Source: a virus
Lineage: Duplodnaviria; Heunggongvirae; Uroviricota; Caudoviricetes
Strand: one strand, 5' to 3'
IMG/VR virus record: IMGVR_UViG_2526164596_000007
Span: 1 to 13,502 of that record
Length of the DNA stretch: 13,502 nucleotides
Shown: one piece after another, positions 1-13,502 of the stretch
How the letters are laid out: each line of letters starts with the position of its first letter
Position numbering within the stretch: position 1 is the first letter of the stretch
Notes under the pieces: model-generated
Database searches by the model: none
What the model was told of the DNA's origin: nothing
What the model saw: the letters and a program-made list of their open reading frames with translations, nothing else
Translations under genes and position numbers: made by a program

Positions 1-577
1 AACAAGGGGAAATTTGCGCCTGGATCGCACGAATAAACGGTTCGAAGGAGCGATGCGTGATTTGTTGCTGAATAAAACTTTTATCCAGCATGACGCGGGT
101 GAAAAGACCATCAAAAACCGCTTTCATTGTGCTATTACCTGCTCCCAAATTGCCTAACACAAGGGGATACATTTGCGATAAGGATAAAAGATCGCGATTA
201 TCTTTTCCTTCATTGAGATGCGGGTAATTCTCATTAATCAACAGTTCAATAAACGGATATTTTAATAGTTCGCCTGCGTAATTATCCCTCTCTAATAATA
301 ATGTAGCCACTTGTGGCGTTAAATTAAGCCAGGCAAAGAGTTTATGTTGAATAAAAAAATGTTGGCATGATTTTAGTAATTCCAACTGCTCTGAAAATAA
401 TTGCCAATGTTGCTCCTCGGTAAGTTGCGCTATAACCCGACTCGTCGGGATACGCACCGTGCCATCTTCACTGGAGAAATGGGTAATTAACTCAACGCCG
501 ACAAGGAGTTGCTGGTTATCTCTTATCGGCAGGAAATAGCAATCAGAATGATAAAGATTCTCCAAAAAAATCTTCAT
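1..577 (-). CDS. ydiV: Anti-FlhDC factor YdiV (EAL-like), partial; 3' end lies beyond the window start
   Basis: Reverse-strand translation from the ATG at 577..575 reads MKIFLENLYHSDCYFLPIRDNQQLLVGVELIT..., matching my recollection of E. coli YdiV. The open frame runs to the window edge. Not in the ORF track because no stop codon falls inside the window. Confidence 0.8.
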   Translation of the reverse strand, partial: MKIFLENLYHSDCYFLPIRDNQQLLVGVELITHFSSEDGTVRIPTSRVIAQLTEEQHWQLFSEQLELLKSCQHFFIQHKLFAWLNLTPQVATLLLERDNYAGELLKYPFIELLINENYPHLNEGKDNRDLLSLSQMYPLVLGNLGAGNSTMKAVFDGLFTRVMLDKSFIQQQITHRSFEPFIRAIQAQISPC

Positions 578-783
578 GGTAACCGTCCCTCTCGAAGGAT
601 GTTTTTCAGTATCCGGCTAAAAGGGATGAGGCCATAAGACATAACAATTACAGAAGGAGTAACTTTCATTTGTTCCATGTTAACCACTTTTTCAGGGGTC
701 CTTTTTTTAGATTATCCTGATTATAAACGAATAATCCATTTACGGAATTTTTGTCTGCAAAATACTACTGTATTCAGGAGTAA

Positions 784-816
784 ATGGACGGCGATGTATC
801 ATCGCCGTCCATTTTT
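784..816. terminator. Perfect 13-bp inverted repeat (784-796 / 800-812, 3-nt loop) followed by T5 on the plus strand, just 3' of nlpC
   Basis: Seen in sequence: atggacggcgatg-tat-catcgccgtccat then ttttt. The A-run/T-run arrangement favours plus-strand termination, but it may act bidirectionally at the end of nlpC. Confidence 0.4.
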
Positions 817-823
817 CGACATA

Positions 824-1288
824 CTAGATTCGTCTCGCCTGCCAGAAATTTTTCTGCCAATAGACATTATCAAGTGAGGAACGCATCACTCCCTTGCTGG
901 TAGAGGCGTGGATAAATTGGTTGTTGGTATCGTAAATACCTACATGCAAACCATTTTGTCCGGACCCCGTTTTGAAAAAGACCAGGTCACCAGGCAGCAA
1001 CTCGTCTTTATCAATTTGCGTGCCGATAGAGGCTTGTTCTTTGGTTTCTCGGGGCAGCTGCAAATCGAAACGATCGCGCATCGTTACAACCACAAATCCC
1101 GAACAGTCCACACCGCGCCGCGTCATGCCACCATAACGATACGGCGTGCCATGCCAGCTTTGTAGCTGGTCGTTCAAACCGGCAATAACGGTAATCGAAT
1201 CAGAAAGTCTGGCATTTGGCGGCGGTGCTTTATGGTGGCTACACCCGGCCAGAAACAGTGCTGTGATCAAAATAAGGCAGAAACGCAT
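824..1288 (-). CDS. nlpC: NlpC/P60-family lipoprotein NlpC
   Basis: 154-aa ORF with a lipoprotein signal and lipobox (LFLAGC) and an NlpC/P60-like Cys motif (GVDCSGFV). Its position downstream of btuD matches the E. coli K-12 gene order. Confidence 0.9.
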   Translation of the reverse strand: MRFCLILITALFLAGCSHHKAPPPNARLSDSITVIAGLNDQLQSWHGTPYRYGGMTRRGVDCSGFVVVTMRDRFDLQLPRETKEQASIGTQIDKDELLPGDLVFFKTGSGQNGLHVGIYDTNNQFIHASTSKGVMRSSLDNVYWQKNFWQARRI

Positions 1289-1365
1289 TCCGTACGGTTC
1301 CTCTGTTTTTTATTCTTGCATTAATTTAGCGTCGTAATTACCCGATTTTCAAGATACTAATGAAA

Positions 1366-2115
1366 TCAGATGGTCGAAATCAGCATTCTGTGACCTTCGA
1401 TATCCAGACGGCGAAAATTCATCCCATAGGCCTGCGCCAGATTTGGCGGCGTGAGCACCTCTTCTCTGCGTCCACTGGCCAGCATTTTTCCACCTTTTAG
1501 CAACCACGCCCGATGCGCATGACGCAATGTGTGGTTGAGATCGTGACTGCTCATCACAATCGCCAGTCCTTGCTGACACAGAGCGCTCAGAATTTTGTCT
1601 AACGCACTTTGTTGCGCAACATCAAGACTGTTCATCGGCTCATCAAGAAGCAGCAATTGACCTGCGGGATTGGCTTGTGGTGTGATTTGCAGCACCACCG
1701 CAGCAAGACGTACGCGTTGCCATTCACCGCCGGAAAGTTGATTGGTGCTACGTCCGAGTTTGTCATCAAGAGCCAGCGCCCCTGCGACATCATTCAGTAG
1801 TTCGGTACGCGTTTTATCGTGCTGATGCAGTGTCAGGTAGTGCCAGACCGGCATTGCAAACGGCGGCGTCTGCTGTTGTGAAAGATAGGCGCGATGCAGC
1901 GCGAGTTTTGTTGCGGACCATGCTTCCAGGGGTTGCCCCGCGAACTGAATGCTTCCCTTACCGCTGGTCATTCCGGCCATTCGTGCAAGCAAGGTACTCT
2001 TACCCGCGCCATTCGGCCCCACCAGATGCAGGATCTCCCCAGCCCGAACCTCGCCAGAAAGTGGCCCCAGGCGGGTAGATTCCGCAACATCCTGTAACTG
2101 CATCACAATAGACAT
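1366..2115 (-). CDS. btuD: Vitamin B12 ABC transporter ATP-binding subunit BtuD
   Basis: 249 aa with Walker A (GPNGAGKST), ABC signature (LSGGEWQR) and Walker B (LLLLDEP). Sits in the expected btuCED context. Confidence 0.95.
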
Positions 2116-2666
2116 TATTTTGCCAACGCCAGTTTAATGCTTTCCATCACAATGGGGTCTTCCGGCGTCATATCCGGGGAAAAACGCTGGATGACCAATC
2201 CGTCCCTGCCAACTAAAAATTTCTCAAAATTCCATAAAATATCATCAGGGTACAGCGGTGCACGACCTTTGCTGACCATACGGGCATAGAATCCGCTCTC
2301 TTCCGGCGCGACTGCGGTCGGCGCTGCGGCAATCAATTTTTGATACAGCGGATGGCGTCCTTCGCCATTAACTTCAATCTTACTGAACATCGGGAACGTC
2401 ACCCCCCATGTGGTGGTACAGTAAGTTTTAATCTCTTCATCGCTGCCCGGTTCTTGTTCCAGAAACTGGTTGCACGGGAATCCCAGCACCACAAAACCTC
2501 GATCGGCCCAGGCTTTCTGAATATTCTCCAACTGCTCATATTGCGGCGTTAAGCCACACTTTGAGGCGACATTGACAATCAACAGCACATTACCGGCGTA
2601 CTTCTCCAGCGTGGTCACTTCACCGTCGATATCTTTCACTACGGTCGTCAGAATGGAATCTTGCAT
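2115..2666 (-). CDS. btuE: Glutathione peroxidase-family protein BtuE
   Basis: 183 aa with a GPx-like active-site region ([23 protein letters not shown]). Its stop shares base 2115 with the btuD start. Confidence 0.95.
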
Positions 2667-2728
2667 CGTTTCTCCTGGGTGTGGTCAGTAAAAATCTTAG
2701 CTTTTAATCATAGACCGTCTTTTTGCGG

Positions 2729-3709
2729 CTAACGTCCTGCTTTTAACAATAACCAGATAAACACCGGCGCACCCAACGTTGCGGTGACCACGCCAATAGG
2801 CAGCTCTGCGGCAGCTAATGCCAAGCGCGCTACAACATCGGCCAGCAGCAATGCGCTCGCCCCTGCCAGCGCGCAGCCGGGAAGTAATACGCGATGATCG
2901 GTTAAACCACACAACCGAAGAATATGTGGGATCACCAGACCAATAAAGCCGATAGCACCCGCCAGCGCCACACTGACGCCAACCATCCAGCCGGTCGCTG
3001 CCACCAGCACATTGCGCCAGAACCACAGGGGTAAACCCAGTTGCCGCGCCGAGATCTCGCCAAGTGCTAACATATTCATCGGCCTGGACTGACAACAGAT
3101 CCACAACAACACGGGGATCAATGCCAGCATCAGCCAGCTTTGCCGCCAGTCTACGCCGCCAAAACCGCCCATCATCCAGTACATCAGCTGACGTAAATCA
3201 ACAGAGGTGGAAAAGTAGATAGCCCACGTCATTAGTGCGCTACAGATAATCCCTAATGCAACGCCAGCCAGCAATAACCGACTGGTCGAAAGATGACGAC
3301 GGGCGAAACGTAAGAGTATTAAAGTGATGATAAGCGCGCCAGCAATCGCACACAGCCCTAGTGCCCAGTTTGGGAGTTGCCCTTGCCCAAGCAATACCGC
3401 GGCGATAAGCCCTACGCCTGCGCCGTTAGAGACGCCAAGTAGTCCAGGTTCTGCCAGAGGATTTTCAAACAACGCCTGCATTACTGCGCCGGATATAGCC
3501 AGCGCCGCACCAACCAGCAATACAGCCAGCGTACGTGGCAGGCGAATCTGCCAGACGAACAGTTCGCCACGAGGAGAAAACCAGTCACCTGGCGAGATCC
3601 ATTGTTCACCGGCGCAAAGGCTTAAGAGAAGCGCCAGCAGCATCAAAACTGACAGGCATAATAACCAGCGAATATTTTGTCGCTGTTGTTGGCGGGCAAG
3701 TGTCAGCAT
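2729..3709 (-). CDS. btuC: Vitamin B12 ABC transporter permease BtuC
   Basis: 326-aa, highly hydrophobic polytopic membrane protein of the FecCD/BtuC permease type. First gene of the btuCED cluster. Confidence 0.95.
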
Positions 3710-3766
3710 GGTATCCGTTCTGCTGAAGTGTCATGGCGTTGATTTTACGGTGACTCTTCGACAGTG

Positions 3767-3792
3767 AAAAGAAAAAAGGCCGCAGAGCGGCC
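3767..3792 (-). terminator. Rho-independent terminator for leftward (minus-strand) transcription
   Basis: Seen in sequence: GC stem ggccgc-aga-gcggcc (3778-3792) that on the minus strand is followed by a T-rich run (plus-strand A-run 3767-3777). It lies 69 bp upstream of the btuC start, at the junction with the phage-like DNA. Confidence 0.6.
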
Positions 3793-3807
3793 ATAAACAC
3801 AAACAAA

Positions 3808-3820
3808 AATCAATAAGTTA
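3808..3820 (+). promoter_or_regulatory. Candidate IHF-binding site in the putative attL region
   Basis: aatcaataagtta matches the IHF consensus WATCAANNNNTTR exactly and is preceded by an A-tract (3801-3809). It lies between the junction and the integrase-proximal direct repeats. Confidence 0.3.
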
Positions 3821-3881
3821 TATAATTATCAAAGGCTTACAGACACACAAAAACACAGCCAACCACAACAAATAACAGGGA

Positions 3882-3901
3882 TGTGGTCACTTTGTGGATC
3901 A
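3882..3901 (+). repeat. Direct repeats TGTGGTCA / TGTGGATCA spaced 11 bp apart; candidate integrase arm-type binding sites
   Basis: Seen in sequence at 3882-3889 and 3893-3901. They resemble the P2 Int arm-site consensus as I recall it (TGTGGACA direct repeats); that consensus is from memory. Confidence 0.3.
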
Positions 3902-4294
3902 TTCGCTCCCCTCTTTTTCCTTATTTCGTTGAACGCCAATTGCGACACACGTACTAAGCAAATCTTTACATTTCTCTACGTCTTCAGACTTACGCAATTT
4001 GATGCTTTTTACAGACTGCGGGCTACTGTCCGTAGCACGATACATCGTTATTTCAATATCATTTCGGTCTAAGAGTCCCATAATGGCTTTTGCAACCTCC
4101 ACACCCTTCTTCGCGAAATCAAAGAACAGAGCAAGTTTATATGGATTTTCGACGGAAAAAACTTCAATTTTGCTAAAACCAACATCGTGTCGAGAAAAAT
4201 ATTGCTCAACCTCATCTCGAAGTTCTGGATCGCAGACAATGTCTATTCTCCAGTACTGACCTAAATGCAAATCGCTATTAACTGTTTTTTCCAC
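3899..4294 (-). CDS. Hypothetical protein (131 aa from GTG at 4294; 138 aa if the TTG at 4315 is used), translationally coupled downstream of int
   Basis: A strong SD (AAGGAGG, 4306..4300 on the minus strand) overlaps the int stop codon, with an in-frame GTG 5 nt downstream. The ORF is AT-rich relative to the integrase and I recognise no family. Confidence 0.55.
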   Translation of the reverse strand: MEKTVNSDLHLGQYWRIDIVCDPELRDEVEQYFSRHDVGFSKIEVFSVENPYKLALFFDFAKKGVEVAKAIMGLLDRNDIEITMYRATDSSPQSVKSIKLRKSEDVEKCKDLLSTCVAIGVQRNKEKEGSE

Positions 4295-4304
4295 AACATC
4301 CTCC

Positions 4305-5279
4305 TTACCCAGCAATAGGATTAAATCTCACCGCATCCTGCAAGTAATCCGGCGCAAGATGGGCATAAATCATCGTTGTCTGAATCTTTGCGTGCCCCAG
4401 AATTTTCTGGAGCGTCAGAATATTGCCGCCGTTCATCATGAAATGACTGGCGAAGGTGTGGCGCAGCGCATGAACAGCCTGGCCGTCAGGAACATCAGGT
4501 GCGACCGTTTTGATGACATCGCGAACCAATGGATAATCCAGCGTCGGAAACACCAGTTTCCCGCCCCGTTTTTTGATCTTTTCAAACAGGCTTTCAGAAA
4601 TAGGAACGGTACGGTTTTTGCTGTTCTTCGTTTTTGAAAAAGTGATTCGACAATGAAGAACACGGCGCTGCTCCAGTACCGCTACCTCGCCCCATCGCGC
4701 CCCGGTCGACAGAAGGATTTCGACAGCCAGCCGTTCATCGGGATTTTCAGCCAGTGCATCCAGCAACTGAACACATTCAGACTTACTCAGATATCCCATT
4801 TCGCGCTCGTTAACCTTCATTCCTTTAAGGCCTTGAACGGGGTTATCGTTAAGAAAATGGCCGGATGAGATGAGTGCGGTAAACATCGCGCTTAACGCCC
4901 CAATCTCTCGATTTATGGTGCTGGGCTGTATCCCCTGCTCTATCCTGGACACACGTAGCTCGGTGAGCATCGTTGTATTAAGTTTATGCACGCACGGGTC
5001 ATCCATTGCCTCACTCAAGCGCAGCAATTTAAGGCGCGTGTTATGCCCTGACTTCATTAGCTGGCCGTGGTATTTCCACCACAAGTCAATAAGCACTGAC
5101 AGCGGACGGCGATCAATGGAGTTTCCTTTCCACTCATTGTTATGCTGTTGCGCCAGCACCCACCGCTCATATAAAACTGCATCCGATTTCGTTTTAAATT
5201 TTTTACGAATGCGTTTGCCTTTACGCCCCTCCGGGCGCATGTCAAGAAGATACCCTCCCGGAATTGATTTTATGCTCAT
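4305..5279 (-). CDS. int: P2-type tyrosine integrase
   Basis: 324 aa with tyrosine-recombinase box II (HALRHTFASH) and the catalytic Tyr region (TTMIYAHL). Strong end-to-end resemblance to P2 Int (337 aa) as recalled. Confidence 0.9.
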   Translation of the reverse strand: MSIKSIPGGYLLDMRPEGRKGKRIRKKFKTKSDAVLYERWVLAQQHNNEWKGNSIDRRPLSVLIDLWWKYHGQLMKSGHNTRLKLLRLSEAMDDPCVHKLNTTMLTELRVSRIEQGIQPSTINREIGALSAMFTALISSGHFLNDNPVQGLKGMKVNEREMGYLSKSECVQLLDALAENPDERLAVEILLSTGARWGEVAVLEQRRVLHCRITFSKTKNSKNRTVPISESLFEKIKKRGGKLVFPTLDYPLVRDVIKTVAPDVPDGQAVHALRHTFASHFMMNGGNILTLQKILGHAKIQTTMIYAHLAPDYLQDAVRFNPIAG

Positions 5280-5328
5280 TCGTGAAACCCCAGCGTTACA
5301 AGACCACCATGCCCCCAGCGCTCCATGA

Positions 5329-5637
5329 TTAGCCGGGCTGTGTGCCAGTCTTGCGGGGTTTTTGAGAAGGCGATGTGCTTTTTAGCCCATCAGGGGAGAG
5401 AGACGGACTGATCTGCCCAGCAGCCTCATTTGTTTTTCCCGTCATAAGCCAATTCATGTACTTAAAAAAGCGAGGGTGATTAACAATCTTGATAAGCACT
5501 TCGCCACCTATGTTTTCAATCCGCCCCGTTTCATAACGACGCAAAGTGCCGATAGGCACATCAATCAGGCCGCAAAATTCTTCGCGCGTTAAATCCTCTG
5601 ATTCACGAATCACTCTAATTTTTTCACCGATAAGCAT
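5329..5637 (-). CDS. P2 C-like immunity repressor (HTH)
   Basis: 102 aa (P2 C is 99 aa as recalled), with an HTH-like N-terminus (LTREEFCGLIDVPIGTLRRYETG). It sits upstream of int on the same strand and is divergent from the cox-like gene across a palindromic operator region. Confidence 0.7.
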   Translation of the reverse strand: MLIGEKIRVIRESEDLTREEFCGLIDVPIGTLRRYETGRIENIGGEVLIKIVNHPRFFKYMNWLMTGKTNEAAGQISPSLSPDGLKSTSPSQKPRKTGTQPG

Positions 5638-5649
5638 TGACAGTGTTCC

Positions 5650-5695
5650 TATAAGTACACTAAGCTTGCGCGCAAGGTGTACTTATAAGTACACC
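5650..5695. promoter_or_regulatory. Lysis/lysogeny switch operator: three half-sites of tataagtacac (direct, inverted, direct), including a perfect 20-bp palindrome
   Basis: Seen in sequence: tataagtacac at 5650-5660, its reverse complement at 5677-5687, and a third copy at 5685-5695. The stretch 5676-5695 (ggtgtacttataagtacacc) is a perfect palindrome and cttgcgcgcaag (5664-5675) is a second one. A TTGACA -35-like hexamer at 5637-5642 lies just upstream. Confidence 0.6.
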
Positions 5696-5733
5696 AAGTC
5701 ACAAACAACCACAGATAGCGCAGGTTATCACAC

Positions 5734-6012
5734 ATGGCAAAAGTCCTGAACACACACGAACAGGCAGACTTTGAGCGTTTAGCAGCGTTCTATCCCTACC
5801 GCGATGAGCATGGGTTACCAGTACTTGAAGAAAGCCTGAAAGATTACGCAAAGCGTACCAACCAAGCTGTTAACACAGTGAAAAGACAGGCTGACAGAGG
5901 TTCAATTCCCATCAACCAGGATGAAAAGAACTCAAGACGCACAGTAAATCTCTTCGCTCTTTTCCTGAAAACAATCAGGAGCGCAGAAAAATACGTGCAG
6001 ATGACAAAATAA
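5734..6012 (+). CDS. Cox/Apl-like small DNA-binding protein (putative excisionase and switch regulator)
   Basis: 92 aa (P2 Cox is 91 aa as recalled). It is the first gene of the rightward operon, divergent from the repressor, and has an HTH-like segment (YAKRTNQAVNTVKRQADRGSIP). Confidence 0.5.
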   Translation: MAKVLNTHEQADFERLAAFYPYRDEHGLPVLEESLKDYAKRTNQAVNTVKRQADRGSIPINQDEKNSRRTVNLFALFLKTIRSAEKYVQMTK

Positions 6013-6026
6013 CGAGGTGTCATTTT

Positions 6027-6365
6027 ATGCTGAAGCAACGCCGTAATTTTCGTACCGGAACAGAACGCCACGCTAACCGTTTCACTACCAGTGCATCACG
6101 CAGCAACATCCGCTACAGCCTGAGTGATACACACGCAACGCCGGATGGCTACCCAGTAAAACAAATCGGCGAGCACGCCTGGCTGATTGAGAAAGCTGGA
6201 ATCGTGATCCACAAATGCCCACGCAATCCGTTTACCGGAAACCGCATTTTTGCATTGAGCTGTGGCGACAATCAGTTCGGGCAGGATTTCACATTATACG
6301 AAGCACTTCGCACGGTTGATCGTCTGCTTCGCGGACAAAGTTTTATTAAACAGGTTGATTTATAA
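6027..6365 (+). CDS. Hypothetical early-region protein (112 aa)
   Basis: SD GAGGTG precedes the ATG; the ORF is packed tightly behind the cox-like gene in the same orientation. Confidence 0.55.
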   Translation: MLKQRRNFRTGTERHANRFTTSASRSNIRYSLSDTHATPDGYPVKQIGEHAWLIEKAGIVIHKCPRNPFTGNRIFALSCGDNQFGQDFTLYEALRTVDRLLRGQSFIKQVDL

Positions 6366-6375
6366 CAGGTGCTTT

Positions 6376-6663
6376 ATGACCAAAGAGTATGCACAAGGTG
6401 TATTTATCCGTTTTATTGATTTTCGCGGTGAACTGTTATTACGTGCATCCGCTATTGACGGAGTGACTCCGGCGGGTAAAAACGGAGCCGACGAAGCCAC
6501 TTACGTTTATCTGAACGGCACGCGACTACTTGTGGAGCTTCCGTACCAGACCGTTCGCGAAGCCATTAACGAAGCTGAAAAAGCGCGCCAGGCTAATAGC
6601 GATGAACCCTATATCGAAATTATTTGTATGGATTCAGAAGCTGAAATTAAGAAAGCAGATTAA
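6376..6663 (+). CDS. Hypothetical early-region protein (95 aa)
   Basis: SD AGGTG at 6366-6370 sits 5 nt before the ATG at 6376. The longer track ORF starting at 6262 overlaps the previous gene and is less likely. Confidence 0.55.
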   Translation: MTKEYAQGVFIRFIDFRGELLLRASAIDGVTPAGKNGADEATYVYLNGTRLLVELPYQTVREAINEAEKARQANSDEPYIEIICMDSEAEIKKAD

Positions 6664-6674
6664 AGGGCGTTGTG

Positions 6675-6917
6675 ATGGGCAAAGAATATAAAACTCTCAT
6701 TAACAAAGCACTTGAGCGTTTTTATTTTCGCTTAAGCGCATCAGGCGCTCATGCTGAACGTGCAGCCCGTGACTCATTGACCAGGGCAATCCGGAGTTTG
6801 TATGACGTCGCTTTTTACGCTGATGATCTGGATGCACTTAACGAACTTTCCGAGCTGATCTGTGCCGCAGAATGCGGGGAACATATTGAACCGTATAAGC
6901 TGGGGAATATCGCATGA
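6675..6917 (+). CDS. Hypothetical early-region protein (80 aa)
   Basis: SD AAGGG at 6663-6667; start is the ATG at 6675 (a GTG at 6672 is also possible). Confidence 0.5.
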   Translation: MGKEYKTLINKALERFYFRLSASGAHAERAARDSLTRAIRSLYDVAFYADDLDALNELSELICAAECGEHIEPYKLGNIA

Positions 6918-7027
6918 GTATATTTATCTCATGGCTTGTTCTGATTATTTCGGTGGCCTGCGCCATTGGGATTATGCGAATTATTCATTCAGTAAAAAAG
7001 ATTGAACGCTTTTTCACTGACGAATAA
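6914..7027 (+). CDS. Small predicted membrane peptide (37 aa, one hydrophobic helix)
   Basis: Translation MSIFISWLVLIISVACAIGIMRIIHSVKKIERFFTDE. Its ATG overlaps the upstream stop (ATGA). Below the ORF-track size cutoff; AT-rich. Confidence 0.4.
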   Translation: MSIFISWLVLIISVACAIGIMRIIHSVKKIERFFTDE

Positions 7028-7116
7028 CAGCACAAACAAAACACCAGATTAAATAAGAAAACGTGAAAACAATCCGCATTCGCGGAGGCATCCACATATA
7101 TAAACACGAGGTTAGC

Positions 7117-7380
7117 ATGCTCAGGACAAATCAAAAAATACTGAAGGATGCGTATTTTGATAGGGGGCAGGATCTCGCAAAGCTTTGTGCCGCGCTAGAA
7201 GAGATACATCAGTATTTCGCTGATATTGAAGATGATATAGCTAACAAAGGTACCAGTATTTCATCAGCGAACAGAGCACATTTTATGGGCTTTAATATTT
7301 TTACAGCAATAAGAACATTAAAAGAACAAAAAGAAGAAATAGAAAAGCTCAAACACGGACATAAAGCTAAGAGAGTGTAA
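7117..7380 (+). CDS. Hypothetical protein (87 aa), AT-rich
   Basis: SD GAGGT at 7107-7111 sits 5 nt before the ATG at 7117 (the track ORF starts at a GTG at 7063). Visibly AT-rich and lysine/glutamate-rich. Confidence 0.5.
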   Translation: MLRTNQKILKDAYFDRGQDLAKLCAALEEIHQYFADIEDDIANKGTSISSANRAHFMGFNIFTAIRTLKEQKEEIEKLKHGHKAKRV

Positions 7381-7583
7381 TGGCAATTAAGCATTTTCCC
7401 GTCGTTCGTTTCACCTCCAGAGGGCGCGAATACGAGGTCGACGAACGCCTGATTACCACTATCGACAAACATCGTTCGGAAAAGGATGCACACCACATCT
7501 ACCTCACTGACGGCACTTACTTCTGCGCCACTAATGTGGCGCGGGTAAACCTTATCCGACAGGTACAGGAGCCACGCAGATGA
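7380..7583 (+). CDS. Hypothetical protein (67 aa)
   Basis: Start overlaps the upstream stop (TAATG), indicating translational coupling. Confidence 0.5.
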   Translation: MAIKHFPVVRFTSRGREYEVDERLITTIDKHRSEKDAHHIYLTDGTYFCATNVARVNLIRQVQEPRR

Positions 7584-7846
7584 CCATTCTGGACTACATC
7601 GCTACTCATCCGGGGTGTAGCGGCGGAGAGATCGCCGCAGCACTGAATACCCCAACCACAGCCATTAATGCTGAGTTACGCCGACTTTGGCGCGGCGGCT
7701 TAGTCATCAGAACAAACCGCAGCACAGGTGGTCGCGCTCGCAAAACAGGAGGCCAGGCTTCTTACCACGTAAACCCGATGCCGTTCGGGTGTAGCAATCC
7801 ACTTACTCACATGTTTAACCAGCTACTGAAGGAAGCCAGAGCATGA
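7580..7846 (+). CDS. Hypothetical protein (88 aa), possible winged-helix DNA-binding protein
   Basis: ATGA overlap with the upstream gene. The segment ILDYIATHPGCSGGEIAAALNTPTTAINAELRRLWRGGLV resembles a wHTH domain; this is a by-eye judgement. Confidence 0.5.
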   Translation: MTILDYIATHPGCSGGEIAAALNTPTTAINAELRRLWRGGLVIRTNRSTGGRARKTGGQASYHVNPMPFGCSNPLTHMFNQLLKEARA

Positions 7847-8142
7847 GCACCATCAACCACCAGAAGCTACGCGAACTGGCATTTGCCCTGCAACGAATGG
7901 CAACGCCTCAAAAATTACTGGCATTTCGCGCAATGCTCTCGCCGTCTGCTGTGCTGGCACTGCTGGATGAGCTGGAGCACGCCAGAACCACGGCTCCTGC
8001 CATTCGCCTGACGCTCCATCATGAAATCGCTGATTTCTGCGCGACGTTGGAGTCGCCGGGCGAACCGGAAACGCCGGAAGCAATACAGCAAGAGCTGCTG
8101 CAACGCATTGACAAGGTTTTTGATTTTTTTCTGAACCAGTAA
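7843..8142 (+). CDS. Hypothetical protein (99 aa)
   Basis: ATGA overlap with the upstream gene; last gene before the non-coding island. Confidence 0.55.
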   Translation: MSTINHQKLRELAFALQRMATPQKLLAFRAMLSPSAVLALLDELEHARTTAPAIRLTLHHEIADFCATLESPGEPETPEAIQQELLQRIDKVFDFFLNQ

Positions 8143-8464
8143 GAAACCAGAACATGCACACACAAAAAAACCGCTTGCCATGCCGCAATCAGTCAGGTTA
8201 CATTTCCACTGCACCTCATAAAACGGGTGCCGGGTTTCGCAGCCTGCTGACTACACAAGCGCACAACCGCGCCAGCGGTTTTTTTGTGCGTACTGTATTG
8301 CCACGTTTTTTTCGCGTCAGAATTATGGCGGGGCGTACGGGGCCGACTTCGGTCGGGCCGGGTTCTTGTGTAGCCGGTACTGCGAACCTCGTACGTCTCG
8401 CCACCCACAGTTTCGCAGCTCTGGATGGTGAGTTTTCACAACTTACTACACAAGGGGCCACACC
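8143..8464 (+). other. GC-rich, hairpin-rich non-coding island (candidate structured RNA or regulatory element)
   Basis: No plausible ORF. Contains a 15-bp inverted repeat (8161-8175 / 8274-8288) flanking about 100 bp, a C(UUCG)G tetraloop hairpin at 8343-8356, and a short hairpin plus T7 run at 8267-8285. Confidence 0.35.
8267..8285 (+). terminator. Putative weak intrinsic terminator (ccgc-gcca-gcgg followed by T7)
   Basis: Seen in sequence. The stem is short (4-6 bp), so the call is tentative. Confidence 0.35.
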
Positions 8465-8695
8465 ATGGCAAACCGCAAACAGCACCGCGCTATCGCGGAG
8501 CGTCGTCACATCCAGACTGAAATCAACCGCAGACTTTTCCGCGCATCACGCGTCGCGCAAATCATGCACATCAATATGCTGCATGAGCGCAGCCACGCAC
8601 TATCAAACATCTATTCCGCCGCTGTTTTCAGCTATCTGGCGGATGATCTGCACGAGCTTCAACAGCTCATCCAGCAGCAAAACAAACTCCATTAA
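8465..8695 (+). CDS. Hypothetical protein (76 aa)
   Basis: SD AGGGG at 8452-8456 precedes the ATG; charged, helical-looking sequence with no cysteines, so not Ogr-like. Confidence 0.5.
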   Translation: MANRKQHRAIAERRHIQTEINRRLFRASRVAQIMHINMLHERSHALSNIYSAAVFSYLADDLHELQQLIQQQNKLH

Positions 8696-8767
8696 TTCCT
8701 GTTCCGGGCCCTTCCTGCACCTTGCGGCGGGAGGCCTTCGCACATCTGTAACCAGAGGATTGCCGCA

Positions 8768-9133
8768 ATGATTCTCGCCAACGACTTTCTTGAATACCTG
8801 CTCAACACAGAGCGTGATCTTGCCGTTCGCGTGCGTGAACGTTATGACATGTACCTGAAATCCCTGCCTGTACCGCAGCTCGCTGACGGAAAGATTGTTA
8901 TTGATGGTCGCTACATGATTGACAGCCACGAGGGAAATTACAGGCTTTACCGCATTGAAGGTGGCACCCCGTCCGTTATTGGCATTTACCAGCGCCCATC
9001 CTCTGCAATCGTCGATGTGATTGCCGACAGCATCCGCATCACACATCGCCATGCCGACACAGAAGACACCGTGCTGGAAATTCAGCGGCTGGCTACAGTC
9101 TGCCGCGACACCCTGAATGGCATGACGAAGTAA
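8768..9133 (+). CDS. Hypothetical protein (121 aa)
   Basis: SD GAGGA at 8753-8757; ends 7 bp before the replicase start. Confidence 0.55.
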   Translation: MILANDFLEYLLNTERDLAVRVRERYDMYLKSLPVPQLADGKIVIDGRYMIDSHEGNYRLYRIEGGTPSVIGIYQRPSSAIVDVIADSIRITHRHADTEDTVLEIQRLATVCRDTLNGMTK

Positions 9134-9139
9134 ATCACT

Positions 9140-12013
9140 ATGACGGCAGAGTACATCAGGGACTGGCAACAACCGCGCCACGCAGTGGGGCGTGAAGGAA
9201 CGGGGATCCCCGCTCCTGAATCCGCGCTTTCCTCCTGGCTGGATGCCTACCGGGTAGAGAACGAGCGCCGCCAGGAAATGGCTGATGCGGCGTTCTCCGC
9301 AACGCCGCTGGGCAACCTGATTAATAAAAGCCTGGACGCACAGGAAAAACAGGACAAAACCATCACACTGGCAGGAGACGCCAGAAAACAGGCACGCGGC
9401 GCGGTGGATGAAGCCATGGCCTCGCTGCGCCTGCTGCCGTCCTATCTGCGCGATCCGCTTATTCGCCACCTCTCCTTCCTGCGCAAAAAACAGGAAGCCG
9501 ATCGCCGGAAAGGCAAAAAGAGCTGGCAGGCGGAACGCTATGCACGCGGAACCCTGCGCAAAATATTCGAACGTCTGGATCGCACTGACAGACACTGGCT
9601 GACACCGGGTTACCGCTCCCTTGCTGGACGCGAACGCCTGGACGATTTGCTTTACCTGCCGCAGCTCAACAAACACCAGATACAGACGCTGGCCACCATG
9701 ACAGCGGCGATGTTCAGCAGCACCTTCGAAAAACTCTGCGATGGCTTTGGCGCGACCGATGGCGAACTGACCATGGATGTAACGCTGAAGGCGTATCAGA
9801 TGCTGGCCCGCATGGCGTTACACCTGCACATCATGCCTCCACATTATGACGCACTGACAACAGATAAAGACCGGAGGAACGAACCGGACACGGAGCTGCT
9901 GCCGGGCGCAATCCTTCGCCTGACCTGTGCGGAATGGTGGAAACGCAAACTGTGGCTGTTACGTTGCGAGTGGAGAGAAGAACAACTCCGCGCCGCCTGT
10001 CTGGTTTCCAGAAAAACATCACCCTATCTGAGCCAGGACGCGTTAAGCGAGTTTCGCGCACAGCGCGAGAAAACACGCGATTTCCTGAAAAGTTTCATGC
10101 TGGAAAACGAAGACGGGTTCACGATTGATCTCGAGACAGTGTATTACGCGGGAGTAAGTAACCCGGTTCACCGTAAGGCAGAAATGATGGCCACCATGAA
10201 GGGGCTGGAACTTCTGGCCGAAGCCCGTGGCGACAAAGCGGTGTTTCTGACTGTCACCTGCCCGTCAAAATACCACGCCACAACAGAGAACGGTCATCCG
10301 AATCCCAAATGGAACGGGGCCACCATGCGCGACTCCAGCGATTACCTGGTTAACACGTTTTTTGCGGCGGTCCGCAAAAAACTGAACCGCGACGGCCTGC
10401 GCTGGTATGGCATCCGCACGGTGGAGCCTCACCATGACGGCACCGTGCACTGGCACATGATGGTCTTTGCTCATCCGGAAGAAATCGACAGCATCGTGGC
10501 CATCACCCGCGATATTGCCATTCAGGAAGACCGCCACGAGCTGGGCAATGATATTACTCCGCGCTTTAAGGCGGAGTATGTCGACGGCTCAAAAGGCACA
10601 CCAACCAGCTACATCGCCACCTACATCGGAAAGAACCTGGACAGCCGCGCCGTGGATGGCATCGACCCGAAAACGGGCAAGCCACGCGTTGACCACGAAA
10701 CCGGAAAATCAATGGCCGAGAGTGTGGAACGCGCCATCGGCTGGGCGCGCCTTCACCGGGTCCGCCAGTTCCAGTTCTTTGGCATCCCCTCCCGTCAGGT
10801 ATGGCGTGAACTCCGCCGCCTTGCCAGCCAGATGGCACGCAACCCGGAAGGCCCACAACGGCTGAAGGATGATGCAATGGATGCGGTACTCGCTGCCGCT
10901 GATGCCGGGTGTTTTGCCACCTACATTGAGAAACAGGGCGGCGTACTTGTTCCACGCAAAGACTACCTGATTCGCACCGCCTACGACCTCGCAGATGAGC
11001 TGAACGATTACGGCGAACAGAGCGTACAGATTTACGGGATCTGGTCACCACTCATCGGGGAATCCTCCCGTGTGTGCACGCACCCGGATAACTGGAAGCT
11101 GGTAAGACGTAAACCGGAAGCGGAAGACAGCACCCGCGAAAATGGTTTTGACCTTCAGGGCGGCCCTGCCGCCCCTTGGACTCGTGGCAATAACTGTCCC
11201 CGTGTACAGGAAACGGACAACAACGGGACAGAACAGCCGGAAGAACGGCCAGCACCGTGGCCGCAGCTCCCTGACGGCGTTGAAGTGAACGAATGGATGC
11301 GCTCACTGAAACGGCACGAACGCCGGGCGCTGATGCGTTCGCTTCGTGACAAACAGGCAAAAAACAGCAGTGATGAAATGCAGAGCTGGACACAGAGCCG
11401 CAAACAGCAGCGGCCTTTGCCTGATAACCACGAATTACTCGCTAAAGAATGGCGGGAGTCTGCTGAAGCTCTCGGCCTGCATATCGGTGAACAGCAGATG
11501 CAGCACCTGTTACGGGGCGGCAGTCTGTACGTTGACGGCAGCATCATTGCACCGCAGGGATTTGAAATTGTACGCAAACCGGATACCCGACCGGACAGCC
11601 GGATCACGCAGCTCTGGCAGCGCCTGAGCCGTAACCACGGCGTAAGCAGCACGGAGATCCGCCATAACCCGGTCGCCAGCTATCTGGCACAGCTGGGGGC
11701 ATCAGACCACGAAGCCGCCGCACGCCTGGCATCCACACTTCAGCAGGACCAGAACACCATGAAAACACCCGTTACCGTGCTTTCTGACATGCTGCGCGCC
11801 ATCCGCGACGCAGAGCACGCACAGAGAATCAGTGAAACCACTGAACGCGCCCGCCGCAAAGCAGATCTGCTGCGGGGTAGCCTGACCAGTGGAAACAAAA
11901 AACAGACAGAAACGGGATTCACAAATCCCGTAAATGAGCAAAAACGCGCCGCGATATATGAAGCGCGCACAAAACAGGCAAAAACGGGATTTCAGAATCC
12001 CGTAAACGATTAA
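9140..12013 (+). CDS. HUH rolling-circle replication initiator, P2 gpA family, with an extended C-terminus
   Basis: 957 aa. HUH motif HWH at residues 437-439 (VHWHMMVF) and a paired-tyrosine motif YIATYIGK (Y491/Y495) analogous to phiX174 gpA / P2 A. Positioned as the last early gene, as in P2. Confidence 0.85.
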   Translation: MTAEYIRDWQQPRHAVGREGTGIPAPESALSSWLDAYRVENERRQEMADAAFSATPLGNLINKSLDAQEKQDKTITLAGDARKQARGAVDEAMASLRLLPSYLRDPLIRHLSFLRKKQEADRRKGKKSWQAERYARGTLRKIFERLDRTDRHWLTPGYRSLAGRERLDDLLYLPQLNKHQIQTLATMTAAMFSSTFEKLCDGFGATDGELTMDVTLKAYQMLARMALHLHIMPPHYDALTTDKDRRNEPDTELLPGAILRLTCAEWWKRKLWLLRCEWREEQLRAACLVSRKTSPYLSQDALSEFRAQREKTRDFLKSFMLENEDGFTIDLETVYYAGVSNPVHRKAEMMATMKGLELLAEARGDKAVFLTVTCPSKYHATTENGHPNPKWNGATMRDSSDYLVNTFFAAVRKKLNRDGLRWYGIRTVEPHHDGTVHWHMMVFAHPEEIDSIVAITRDIAIQEDRHELGNDITPRFKAEYVDGSKGTPTSYIATYIGKNLDSRAVDGIDPKTGKPRVDHETGKSMAESVERAIGWARLHRVRQFQFFGIPSRQVWRELRRLASQMARNPEGPQRLKDDAMDAVLAAADAGCFATYIEKQGGVLVPRKDYLIRTAYDLADELNDYGEQSVQIYGIWSPLIGESSRVCTHPDNWKLVRRKPEAEDSTRENGFDLQGGPAAPWTRGNNCPRVQETDNNGTEQPEERPAPWPQLPDGVEVNEWMRSLKRHERRALMRSLRDKQAKNSSDEMQSWTQSRKQQRPLPDNHELLAKEWRESAEALGLHIGEQQMQHLLRGGSLYVDGSIIAPQGFEIVRKPDTRPDSRITQLWQRLSRNHGVSSTEIRHNPVASYLAQLGASDHEAAARLASTLQQDQNTMKTPVTVLSDMLRAIRDAEHAQRISETTERARRKADLLRGSLTSGNKKQTETGFTNPVNEQKRAAIYEARTKQAKTGFQNPVND
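11912..12003. repeat. Two copies of the palindrome acgggatt-N4-aatcccgt, 72 bp apart, inside the 3' end of the replicase ORF and just upstream of parM; candidate parC-like centromere and ParR operator
   Basis: Seen in sequence at 11912-11931 and 11984-12003. A possible parM promoter (TTCAGA at 11990-11995, ATTAAT at 12013-12018) overlaps the second copy. Confidence 0.45.
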
Positions 12014-12037
12014 TTAATCAACATAAGGAAAAGCGAC

Positions 12038-12998
12038 ATGAAAATTTGTATCGATGACGGCTCCACCAACATCAAGCTGGCATGGACTGAGAACGGCGAA
12101 CGCCGCAACGCCATCAGCCCGAACAGCTTCAAGTCGGAATGGTCTGCGCCGTTCGGTGACACGCAGCCCGCGAACTACATGCTTGATGGCGTGCGCTATG
12201 GTTTTGATCCGGTCAGCGATCGCTTTGTCCAGACGACCGACACGCAATACCAGTACAGCGATGTGAATGTCATTGCCATTCATCACGCGCTGGTCAAATC
12301 AGGCATCACACCACAGGAAGTGGATGTGGTTGTCACCCTGCCACTGAGCGAATATTTCGACACAAACGCACAGCCGGACATGGCCAACATCAACCGCAAA
12401 AAAGCAAACGTCGTGCGCCCGGTGGCGTACCAGAACGGAAAAAGCATTCACTATCCGTAACGTACGGGTTATGCCTGAATCCATTCCGGCTGGCTTTAAG
12501 GCACTGGCTGACATGAGTCCGTTTGAATCCCTGCTGATTGTGGATTTAGGCGGAACCACGCTGGATGTGGCAAAGGTTCAGGGACAACTGGCAGGTATCA
12601 GCCAGGTGTTTTGCGATCCACACGTAGGCGTTTCCCTGATGGCCGATGCCGTACTGTCGGTGATGGCCACTAACGGTATGCGTACCAGTCACCACATCGC
12701 CAATACCATTATCGAACATCGCCATGATGAAGCCTGGCTGCGCCAGCACATCCACAATGACGCGCATTACGCCAGCCTGATGGCGGTTATTCGTGAAAAG
12801 GAAGAAACACTGAAACAACGCGTGATCCGCGCGCTGGCGGGTTTTTCGGGTTACGGGCGGGTGATGGTTGTCGGTGGCGGGGCGGAGATTGTGGCACCCG
12901 CTATCCGCGAAGCCTGCGGAGTTAATGCGACTTTCATCGCGGACGGGGTGCCACAGTTTGCTCTGGTTAATGGGCTGTACGCAATGGACAAGGAGTAA
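12038..12998 (+). pseudogene. parM: ParM/StbA-type actin-like segregation ATPase, interrupted by a +1 frameshift in an A5 run
   Basis: N-terminus MKICIDDGSTNIKLAW matches R1 ParM (MLVFIDDGSTNIKLQW) as recalled. Phosphate-2 (LLIVDLGGTTLD) and adenosine (VMVVGGGAEI) motifs are present. The frame shifts from the 12038 frame to the 12471 frame at aaaaa (12439-12443); removing one A restores a continuous ORF of about 319 aa. Confidence 0.8.
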
Positions 12999-13002
12999 AC
13001 CA

Positions 13003-13314
13003 ATGACGACACCAACCAGACGGATAAGTTTCTATCTGAAGCCCGCCGCCGTCAAGAACGAAGGCGAAGCATGCGCCTGGCTGGACAGCCTTACACCAGA
13101 AGCCCGCAAAAGTGGTCAACGTGTGGCTTTTCTGGCCGGGCTGGCACTACTGAAAATGAATCCGGCAGAGGCTTACCGACTGGCTGCATGGGCTGATTAT
13201 GAGGCGTTATCAGTGACACAAACCAGGACAGAACGCCCCGCGTCACAGCCAGTATCAGCCGCACAGATAACCAGTCAGATGGCCGGAAATATCCGGGCGT
13301 TATTTCCCGAATAA
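13003..13314 (+). CDS. parR: ParR-like centromere-binding protein (103 aa)
   Basis: SD AGGAG at 12991-12995 sits 7 nt before the ATG. The N-terminal segment (RRISFYLKP...LDSL...AFLAGLAL) and C-terminal IRALFPE resemble R1 ParR as recalled. Lies immediately downstream of parM, as in parMRC loci. Confidence 0.65.
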   Translation: MTTPTRRISFYLKPAAVKNEGEACAWLDSLTPEARKSGQRVAFLAGLALLKMNPAEAYRLAAWADYEALSVTQTRTERPASQPVSAAQITSQMAGNIRALFPE

Positions 13315-13377
13315 CACAACATCAGGGCGCATCCGCCCGGATGACTTTAACCCGGGAGCATAAACAAGGGGGACACA

Positions 13378-13502
13378 ATGCAACACATTGACAGAGAAAA
13401 AGCGCAGCGACTGATTGAGCGGATGGAAGCGCTGGCGAAAGAAGAAAATGTCAACATCCAAAAAATAGCTGAATGTGGCCAGATAGTTCTTCGTCGTGAA
13501 AA
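13378..13502 (+). CDS. Hypothetical protein, 5' portion only (runs off the window end)
   Basis: SD-like aaggggga upstream of the ATG at 13378; the frame stays open to the window end (MQHIDREKAQRLIERMEALAKEENVNIQKIAECGQIVLRRE...). Confidence 0.4.
   Translation, partial: MQHIDREKAQRLIERMEALAKEENVNIQKIAECGQIVLRRE

Follow-up and report, generated by a model that had tools for sequence, protein, structure and literature searches.

Why would a phage that integrates into the chromosome and replicates by rolling circle retain an actin-type segregation machine, and do so under strong purifying selection? The question is raised by a 13,502-nucleotide (nt) stretch of DNA, positions 1 to 13,502 of the IMG/VR record IMGVR_UViG_2526164596_000007 (Caudoviricetes), here called the window, in which a P2-like prophage carries a parM-parR gene pair of the kind known from the plasmids R1 and R100. 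An earlier note made from the sequence of the window had placed this pair at 12038-13314 and described it as plasmid-type cargo; the coordinates proved exact, running from the parM ATG at 12038 to the end of parR at 13314. We found that the region is, with near certainty, a partition gene pair of type II, the actin type, in the order parM-parR; the pair is near-constant in one phage lineage, evolves under purifying selection, and is frameshifted in this particular copy. Adding to these observations the putative ParR sites, the predicted expression, and a proposed role on circular phage DNA, we give the account as a whole slightly better than an even chance of being correct.

Once the frame of the window copy was repaired, ParM matched the R1 ParM structures end to end (1mwk, E 3.5e-93) and was 47% identical to R1 ParM over its full length, with the nucleotide-binding motifs that contact phosphate and adenosine kept (DDGSTNIK, DLGGTTLD, and GGGAE). 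Both domains and the motifs of the actin-fold ATPase of a type II (ParMRC) system were found, in a gene that is frameshifted in the window. The adaptor gene lies directly downstream, in the tightly coupled parM-then-parR order of the ParMRC (parA/stbAB) systems of R1 and R100, and its product falls into the same Pfam family (PF10784). In PHROGs, the two genes matched phrog_691 (1.4e-90) and, for parR, phrog_2515 (3e-57), both titled 'partition protein', while neither protein scored above the cutoff in NCBIfam. As a single sequence, the window ParR had no match in the PDB; a profile of phage-clade and plasmid ParRs matched the ParR of pB171 (StbB, PDB 2JD3) with E 1.8e-15, and did so end to end, including the N-terminal strand region and the C-terminal ..LF tail. 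The N-terminal RRISFYLKP strand (RxxFY..P), typical of ribbon-helix-helix adaptors, and the C-terminal N..LFP tail were invariant in the phage and plasmid relatives compared, and the protein is predicted to act as the ParR adaptor. In R1, the C-terminal tail of ParR is the part that touches ParM. Because both the strand and this tail are invariant, the ParR-ParM partnership is probably intact in the lineage. Both proteins therefore matched the ParM/StbA and ParR families significantly, and the resemblance to parMR of R1/R100 that the earlier note had recognized is one of genuine R1/pB171-type homologues; the close resemblance described in the note amounts, for ParM, to 47% identity. Unlike its plasmid counterparts, the cassette is found in an integrative phage replicated by gpA, its ParR is shorter (103 amino acids, aa) owing to a deletion in the middle region, and its candidate DNA sites differ from those of both R1 and pB171.

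The prophage is integrated beside btuC, and the btuC-attL-int junction is visible in the window. The same btuC-int...gpA-parM-parR layout, with at least 80% coverage of the window, was present in 165 complete E. coli chromosomes, which excludes the assembly chimera of plasmid and prophage DNA that the earlier note had considered. The position of the pair directly after a gpA-like replicase, also given in that note, was borne out by the upstream open reading frame (ORF), a Phage_GPA match at 9.5e-132. With a P2-type gene A, and an integrase and repressor at one end, the element is a P2-like (Peduoviridae) prophage of the P88/Xuanwuvirus type, whose annotated relatives carry int, Cox/CI, gpA, portal, terminase, GPO, and a P2-family capsid protein. 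DNA identity to P88 was 97.9%, and the parMR region was 95-99% identical to isolated inducible phages of this type (P88, PhiR44_2, P884B11, 520873, and Citrobacter phiSM), in whose records the two genes already bear the names ParM and partition protein. Escherichia phage P88/Xuanwuvirus, Citrobacter phage phiSM, and the related prophages are thus the same type of element as the one in the window; their parM is intact, whereas the window has a private frameshift and an extended gpA.

The distribution of the pair shows that it is not cargo. The 1.5-kb parMR region was matched in 1,307 of 5,426 complete E. coli genomes, so that about a quarter of them carry the cassette, including O157:H7, O145, ST131, and UTI89 strains; the gpA type of the window was found in 1,444 genomes of the same set, close to the parMR count. 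Among IMG/VR relatives (80 loci, L016-L095), the 319-aa parM ORF was intact in 80 of 80, gpA lay upstream in 78 of 78, and parR was intact in 69 of 73. The stretch from parR to the portal gene, by comparison, ranged from 0.9 to 2.5 kb and occurred in at least 27 unrelated versions among 54 of these loci. Because parM and gpA are constant while the stretch behind parR is hypervariable, parMR borders the variable region as a fixed module; the earlier placement in a variable cargo position does not hold, and the truly variable region opens with the gene that starts at 13379. Together, these counts identify parMR, with near certainty, as a near-constant module after gene A in P88-like (Xuanwuvirus) prophages of E. 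coli, Salmonella, and Citrobacter. The ratio of nonsynonymous to synonymous substitution (dN/dS) for parM was 0.02-0.2 in all 21 pairs compared, and, judged from these ratios, parM is under purifying selection. For annotation, parMR is best treated as a lineage marker rather than as cargo, with the reservation that the window copy is frameshifted.

In the window, one extra A in the run at 12439-12443 splits parM into ORFs at 12038-12460 and 12471-12998, a split overlooked in the earlier note, and it is near certain from the reading frames that full-length ParM cannot be made from the window as sequenced. For the 76 nt around the insertion, the best match was 97.4%, found at 668 places in the complete E. 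coli genomes, and the insertion was shared by none of these and by none of the 80 IMG/VR loci. A programmed frameshift was considered and rejected, since the extra A occurs in no other copy; the insertion is either a private mutation or a homopolymer sequencing error. A second A-run differs at the end of gpA, where an alignment showed A5 at 11940-11944 in the window and A6 in the two relatives L001 and L002. The shorter run abolishes the normal gpA stop (TGA, 11959-11961) and adds 17 codons to gpA, which then extends over the 76-nt intergenic region of the relatives. This extended tail crosses the second of the two palindromes described below, and the DNA repeat makes the tail repeat the peptide TGF(T/Q)NPVN. 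Irregular ParM matches were also noted elsewhere: in Escherichia phage 503458 (CP025874.1 / NC_049341.1), a further record with a frameshifted parM, ParM was matched in four pieces, annotated as two or three 'partition protein' fragments, and in two IMG/VR loci (L070 and L090) the tblastn match to ParM (6001-7380) spanned 1,380 nt instead of the usual 957, with a 319-aa ORF starting from the usual ATG, so that parM may be followed there by a duplication or insertion.

If both A-run changes were real rather than sequencing errors, the window copy would be a dead cassette in a decaying prophage. Neither one-base change is compensated; both fall inside the prophage, some 500 nt from each other, while nlpC and btuCED on the host side are all intact, and neither change was seen in the relatives examined (the 668 E. 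coli places and 80 IMG/VR loci for parM; L001 and L002 for gpA). Both are, however, changes in homopolymer length, a classic error of several sequencing chemistries; the nearest relative differs by just 6 further substitutions in parM and 2 in parR, with no other decay, and a third indel, at 7009, is natural variation. We regard decay of this copy as a serious possibility that we lean against. For the lineage as a whole, a dead remnant is contradicted by the purifying selection and the intact copies.

How far the module extends beyond the P88-like phages was addressed with a search of 5.8 billion proteins, which returned a tight ParM cluster of thousands of members at 90-98% identity. The next homologues were from Hafnia and Plesiomonas (62%), Serratia (58%), and Enterobacter (53%), followed by many plasmid ParMs at about 50%. 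In a neighbour-joining tree, the window ParM grouped with the ParMs of these four genera, apart from R1. A scan of genome contigs with the single ParM yielded 3 loci, and the divergent contexts were reached from the protein search and contig look-ups. The four divergent members whose context was examined, those of Hafnia, Plesiomonas, Serratia, and Enterobacter, were all in P2-like prophages, the Plesiomonas context having been predicted from the tree before it was looked up, and all had the order of the P88-like group, in which gpA is followed, after at most two small ORFs, by parM and parR, then by cargo, and then by portal and terminase. The three ParMs checked outside the clade were in an integrative and conjugative element, an integrated Rep3/ParAB plasmid, and another non-P2 element. 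The pair after gene A, which the earlier note had proposed to look for in P2-like prophages, is therefore found well beyond the nearest relatives of the window. That such genes lie outside the canonical P2 and 186 gene set, as the same note had held, agrees with a tblastn search of ParM against 50,697 phage records, in which only P88-like phages and the phage-plasmid D6 were matched.

Proteins were compared pairwise among five of these phages (L001, L007, L009, L010, and L012), and identities ranged over 52-74% for ParM, 29-55% for gpA, 30-86% for the portal protein, and 36-80% for the large terminase subunit. For most phage pairs, ParM was the best conserved of the proteins compared; between the P88-like and Hafnia phages, for example, it was 62% identical, against 30% for portal, 36% for terminase, and 33% for gpA. 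The exception was the Serratia-Enterobacter pair, in which ParM (74%) fell behind both portal (86%) and terminase (80%). These values suggest either that parMR is old and strongly constrained or that it has been exchanged among P2-like phages into a constant slot, and since both readings imply a phage-adapted function, such a function is indicated in either case. In the more distant P2-like prophages, the slot behind parR held HicAB, a KAP-family NTPase, or a Y1 transposase or Ogr. One parM with 97% protein identity to that of the window was met on a 226-kb contig labelled as a Firmicutes genome ('Vagococcus sp. WN89Y', NZ_JBQPOM010000071.1, L004); this assembly is probably contaminated or mislabelled.

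A partition system of this type also needs a DNA site, and the only candidates lie just upstream of parM. Two 42-nt repeat units, 72 nt apart, each contain a 20-nt palindrome of the pattern ACGGGATTnnnnAATCCCGT, at -126 to -107 and -54 to -35 relative to the parM ATG. The pattern occurred exactly twice in the window and twice in a whole 34.5-kb phage genome, each time just upstream of parM, and both palindromes were kept in 78 of 78 IMG/VR loci, with variation mostly in the loop and at the outermost positions. Comparable elements were seen in the divergent phages: in the Plesiomonas P2-like prophage, a pair of 26-nt repeats likewise shows a 72-nt spacing; a GGGATT/AATCCC dyad occurs twice in the Hafnia phage; and the phages of Serratia and Enterobacter carry an inverted repeat of 16-20 nt. 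From this position and constancy, we infer that the two palindromes are ParR sites, forming a minimal parC or an operator. An R1-style iteron parC was rejected, since Tandem Repeats Finder and repeat searches detected no iteron array in the window or in the complete phage genome. In R1, a 2 x 5 array of 11-bp iterons surrounds the promoter, whereas the phage has two palindromes and no consensus promoter.

No sigma-70 consensus promoter was found between gene A and parM at the scan threshold, in the window or in an intact relative, although the scan is a crude consensus test and a weak autoregulated promoter active in lysogens would be compatible with its result. A plus-strand terminator between gene A and parM was likewise not found. 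The lack of both signals suggests co-transcription with the early replication operon, and parMR is probably transcribed in this way. Expression would then follow infection or induction and be off in a repressed lysogen. P2-type phages replicate by gpA-initiated rolling circle, which yields monomeric circles. These circles would be plasmid-like substrates for a ParMR machine: ParR would bind the two 20-nt palindromes upstream of parM, a reduced parC or operator in place of the R1-type array of ten iterons, and ParM filaments would move or space the circular genomes coming from rolling-circle replication, which may help to replicate or package the phage DNA or to pass it to daughter cells ahead of integration or lysis. 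By analogy with the prophage system described next, we hold with moderate confidence that parMR positions or partitions extrachromosomal phage circles; the mechanism taken alone falls somewhat short of an even chance. Put in its fullest form, the proposal is that many integrative P2-like phages have, as an adapted and core-like function, a ParMR lineage of their own whose centromere is reduced to two dyads; its proteins would be produced along with the replication operon and would actively space or transport the monomeric circles of gpA replication, or partition unintegrated circles while lysogeny is being established. This we offer tentatively, at clearly less than an even chance.

The best functional analogy, and the closest precedent for the proposed role of the P88-type pair, is AlpA/AlpC of the Corynebacterium glutamicum prophage CGP3, an integrated prophage that likewise encodes an actin-like filament protein with a co-transcribed adaptor. 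In CGP3, the adaptor recognizes sites that precede the operon encoding it, induction of the pair is early, and both proteins act on excised circular phage DNA and are needed for its efficient replication (PMC4446434). Unlike the P88-type pair, AlpAC belongs to a Gram-positive host and an unrelated phage, and the likeness drawn here is a functional analogy. If the two-dyad reading is true, the P88-type cassette would be the Gram-negative counterpart of CGP3 AlpAC, plasmid segregation machinery turned into a factor of the phage replication cycle. If parMR organises extrachromosomal phage DNA, cytoskeleton-assisted replication would extend from CGP3 and the jumbo phages to a very common enterobacterial prophage family, and the upstream site would offer a natural minimal parC to study.

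Several observations weigh against a partition role of this kind. The tandem iterons that embrace the par promoter upstream of parM in R1-type parC are missing, and there are just two palindromes where plasmid-type relatives carry, ahead of parM, classic arrays of iterons made up of clustered TTATCTC or TATTTTTCT units. The palindromes may be operators alone, or no ParR sites at all. They also scored as terminator-like hairpins on the minus strand; among the 78 loci, only single-sided changes were seen, with no compensatory pairs, an outcome that is neutral on an RNA hairpin, and no ParR-specific co-variation, and Rfam gave no match to them at E<=1. The promoter scan would be compatible with a weak promoter active in lysogens, the window's own parM is frameshifted so that the system may be idle here, and the searchable literature (on ParM in P2-like phages and Peduoviridae) yielded no functional study of the cassette; the phiSM paper names the parM gene merely as a putative 'fitness' factor (PMC6456863). 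The occurrence of only two sites, with an iteron array nowhere in the phage, and their terminator-like look would suit a regulator without a centromere, in which the palindromes are ParR operators or RNA hairpins and ParM is kept for a role other than moving DNA, or for none. Against this, ParR retains the C-terminal ParM-binding motif and ParM its ATPase motifs, the dN/dS values are low, and the pair is co-inherited in constant order across very divergent phages. We consider this explanation very unlikely.

Two further explanations were suggested in the earlier note. As a facultative phage-plasmid, the P88-like phage would have a second option besides integration, with ParMR keeping its genome as a low-copy circular episome (a carrier state or pseudolysogeny). 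The deposited circular plasmid pZ1323PEC0009-2 (NZ_CP148288.1, 1-34461; L006) is indeed an entire P88-like genome of 34.5 kb that is closed across attP, and the sole other phage with an R1-type ParM among the 50,697 records is the P1-like D6, whose StbA module has 47.5% ParM identity. D6 is a true 91-kb plasmid prophage, in contrast to the element of the window, which integrates into the chromosome. Against an episomal state, 1,453 of the 1,455 parMR places in E. coli are chromosomal; among complete elements, an integrase is always present and a plasmid replication gene never, and replication depends on gpA in a repressible early operon; a phage identical to pZ1323PEC0009-2 is integrated in the chromosome of the sister strain Z1323HEC0067; and circles excised by spontaneous induction often turn up in assemblies. 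A 26.8-kb Shigella boydii 'plasmid' was considered as an episomal phage and rejected, being a linear contig with an IS1-disrupted prophage. With one circular whole-phage record as the sign of an extrachromosomal form and no plasmid-type replicon, an episomal lifestyle finds little support, and we judge it unlikely.

The other suggestion was that the cassette excludes competing replicons, with prophage ParR/ParM disturbing the partition of incoming plasmids or of superinfecting related phages. Purifying selection and constancy suit any selected function, this one included, and nearby cargo in relatives is often of a defence or toxin type (HicAB, KAP NTPase, and Hok). In the plasmid database, however, the palindrome region occurred solely inside the same prophage type, always beside a 'replication endonuclease', so that the candidate ParR sites are part of no genuine plasmid par locus. 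Since ParM identity to the plasmid proteins is only about 50% and the parC iterons of plasmids are unrelated to the palindromes, cross-reaction with plasmids is unlikely, and we hold a competition device to be highly improbable. 

As to novelty, public phage and genome records already annotate the two genes at this place, and PHROG families exist for both, so the description of the pair as the least expected gene content of the window cannot be kept; the cassette is real and no surprise for a P88-like phage. What is new here is the frameshift, the finding that the pair is core-like and not cargo, the ParM clade of P2-like phages in which synteny is conserved, and the reduced two-dyad upstream site. 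The coordinates of the features are collected in Table 1.

Table 1. Chromosomal genes, prophage genes, and candidate sites in the window, in order of position.
Feature	Position	Strand	Remarks
nlpC, btuD, btuE, btuC	824-3709	minus	E. coli chromosome, start of window
Integrase	4305-5279	minus	Entry into the P2-like prophage
CI-type repressor	5329-5637	minus	
Early operon			Rightward
Gene A (gpA), P2-type replication initiator	9140-12013	plus	Pfam Phage_GPA, 9.5e-132; relatives are RefSeq 'replication endonuclease'
Repeat unit 1	11896-11937	plus	20-nt palindrome ACGGGATTcacaAATCCCGT (11912-11931); candidate ParR operator or parC half
Repeat unit 2	11968-12009	plus	20-nt palindrome ACGGGATTtcagAATCCCGT (11984-12003); candidate ParR operator or parC half
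parM, 5' fragment	12038-12460	plus	140 codons; StbA_N domain (Pfam StbA_N, 7e-70, 12038-12457); premature end by frameshift
A5 homopolymer	12439-12443	plus	+1 insertion breaking parM; relatives have A4 or GCGAA
parM, 3' part	12444-12998	plus	Shifted frame (ORF from ATG 12471); ParM C-terminal domain PF21523, 2.8e-69 (12471-12995); DLGGTTLD and GGGAE motifs
parR	13003-13314	plus	103 aa; Plasmid_stab_B PF10784, 9.4e-24 (13003-13311); 4 nt after the parM stop
Next gene	13379-13502	plus	Start only, cut by the window end; RefSeq match 'ClpX C4-type zinc finger protein'

Elsewhere in the early operon, a small ORF at 6914-7027 encodes a hydrophobic protein of 37 aa (MSIFISWLVLIISVACAIGIMRII...), of which 37- and 45-aa length variants occur among the relatives. 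This ORF lies at a mosaic junction, where the similarity to the nearest relative stops. A frameshift at 7009, as a third indel of the window, was considered and rejected, the difference being natural variation in which the 37-aa ORF is a length variant found in L001.

Near the ogr end of the circular phage genome pZ1323PEC0009-2 (L006, 110-1431), a Hok/Gef-family toxin gene, a Com regulator, and a DNA methyltransferase were found. Hok/Sok is the other classical stability locus of R1. Homologues of both stability systems of R1 are thus present in this phage type; the matching end of the prophage is not covered by the window.

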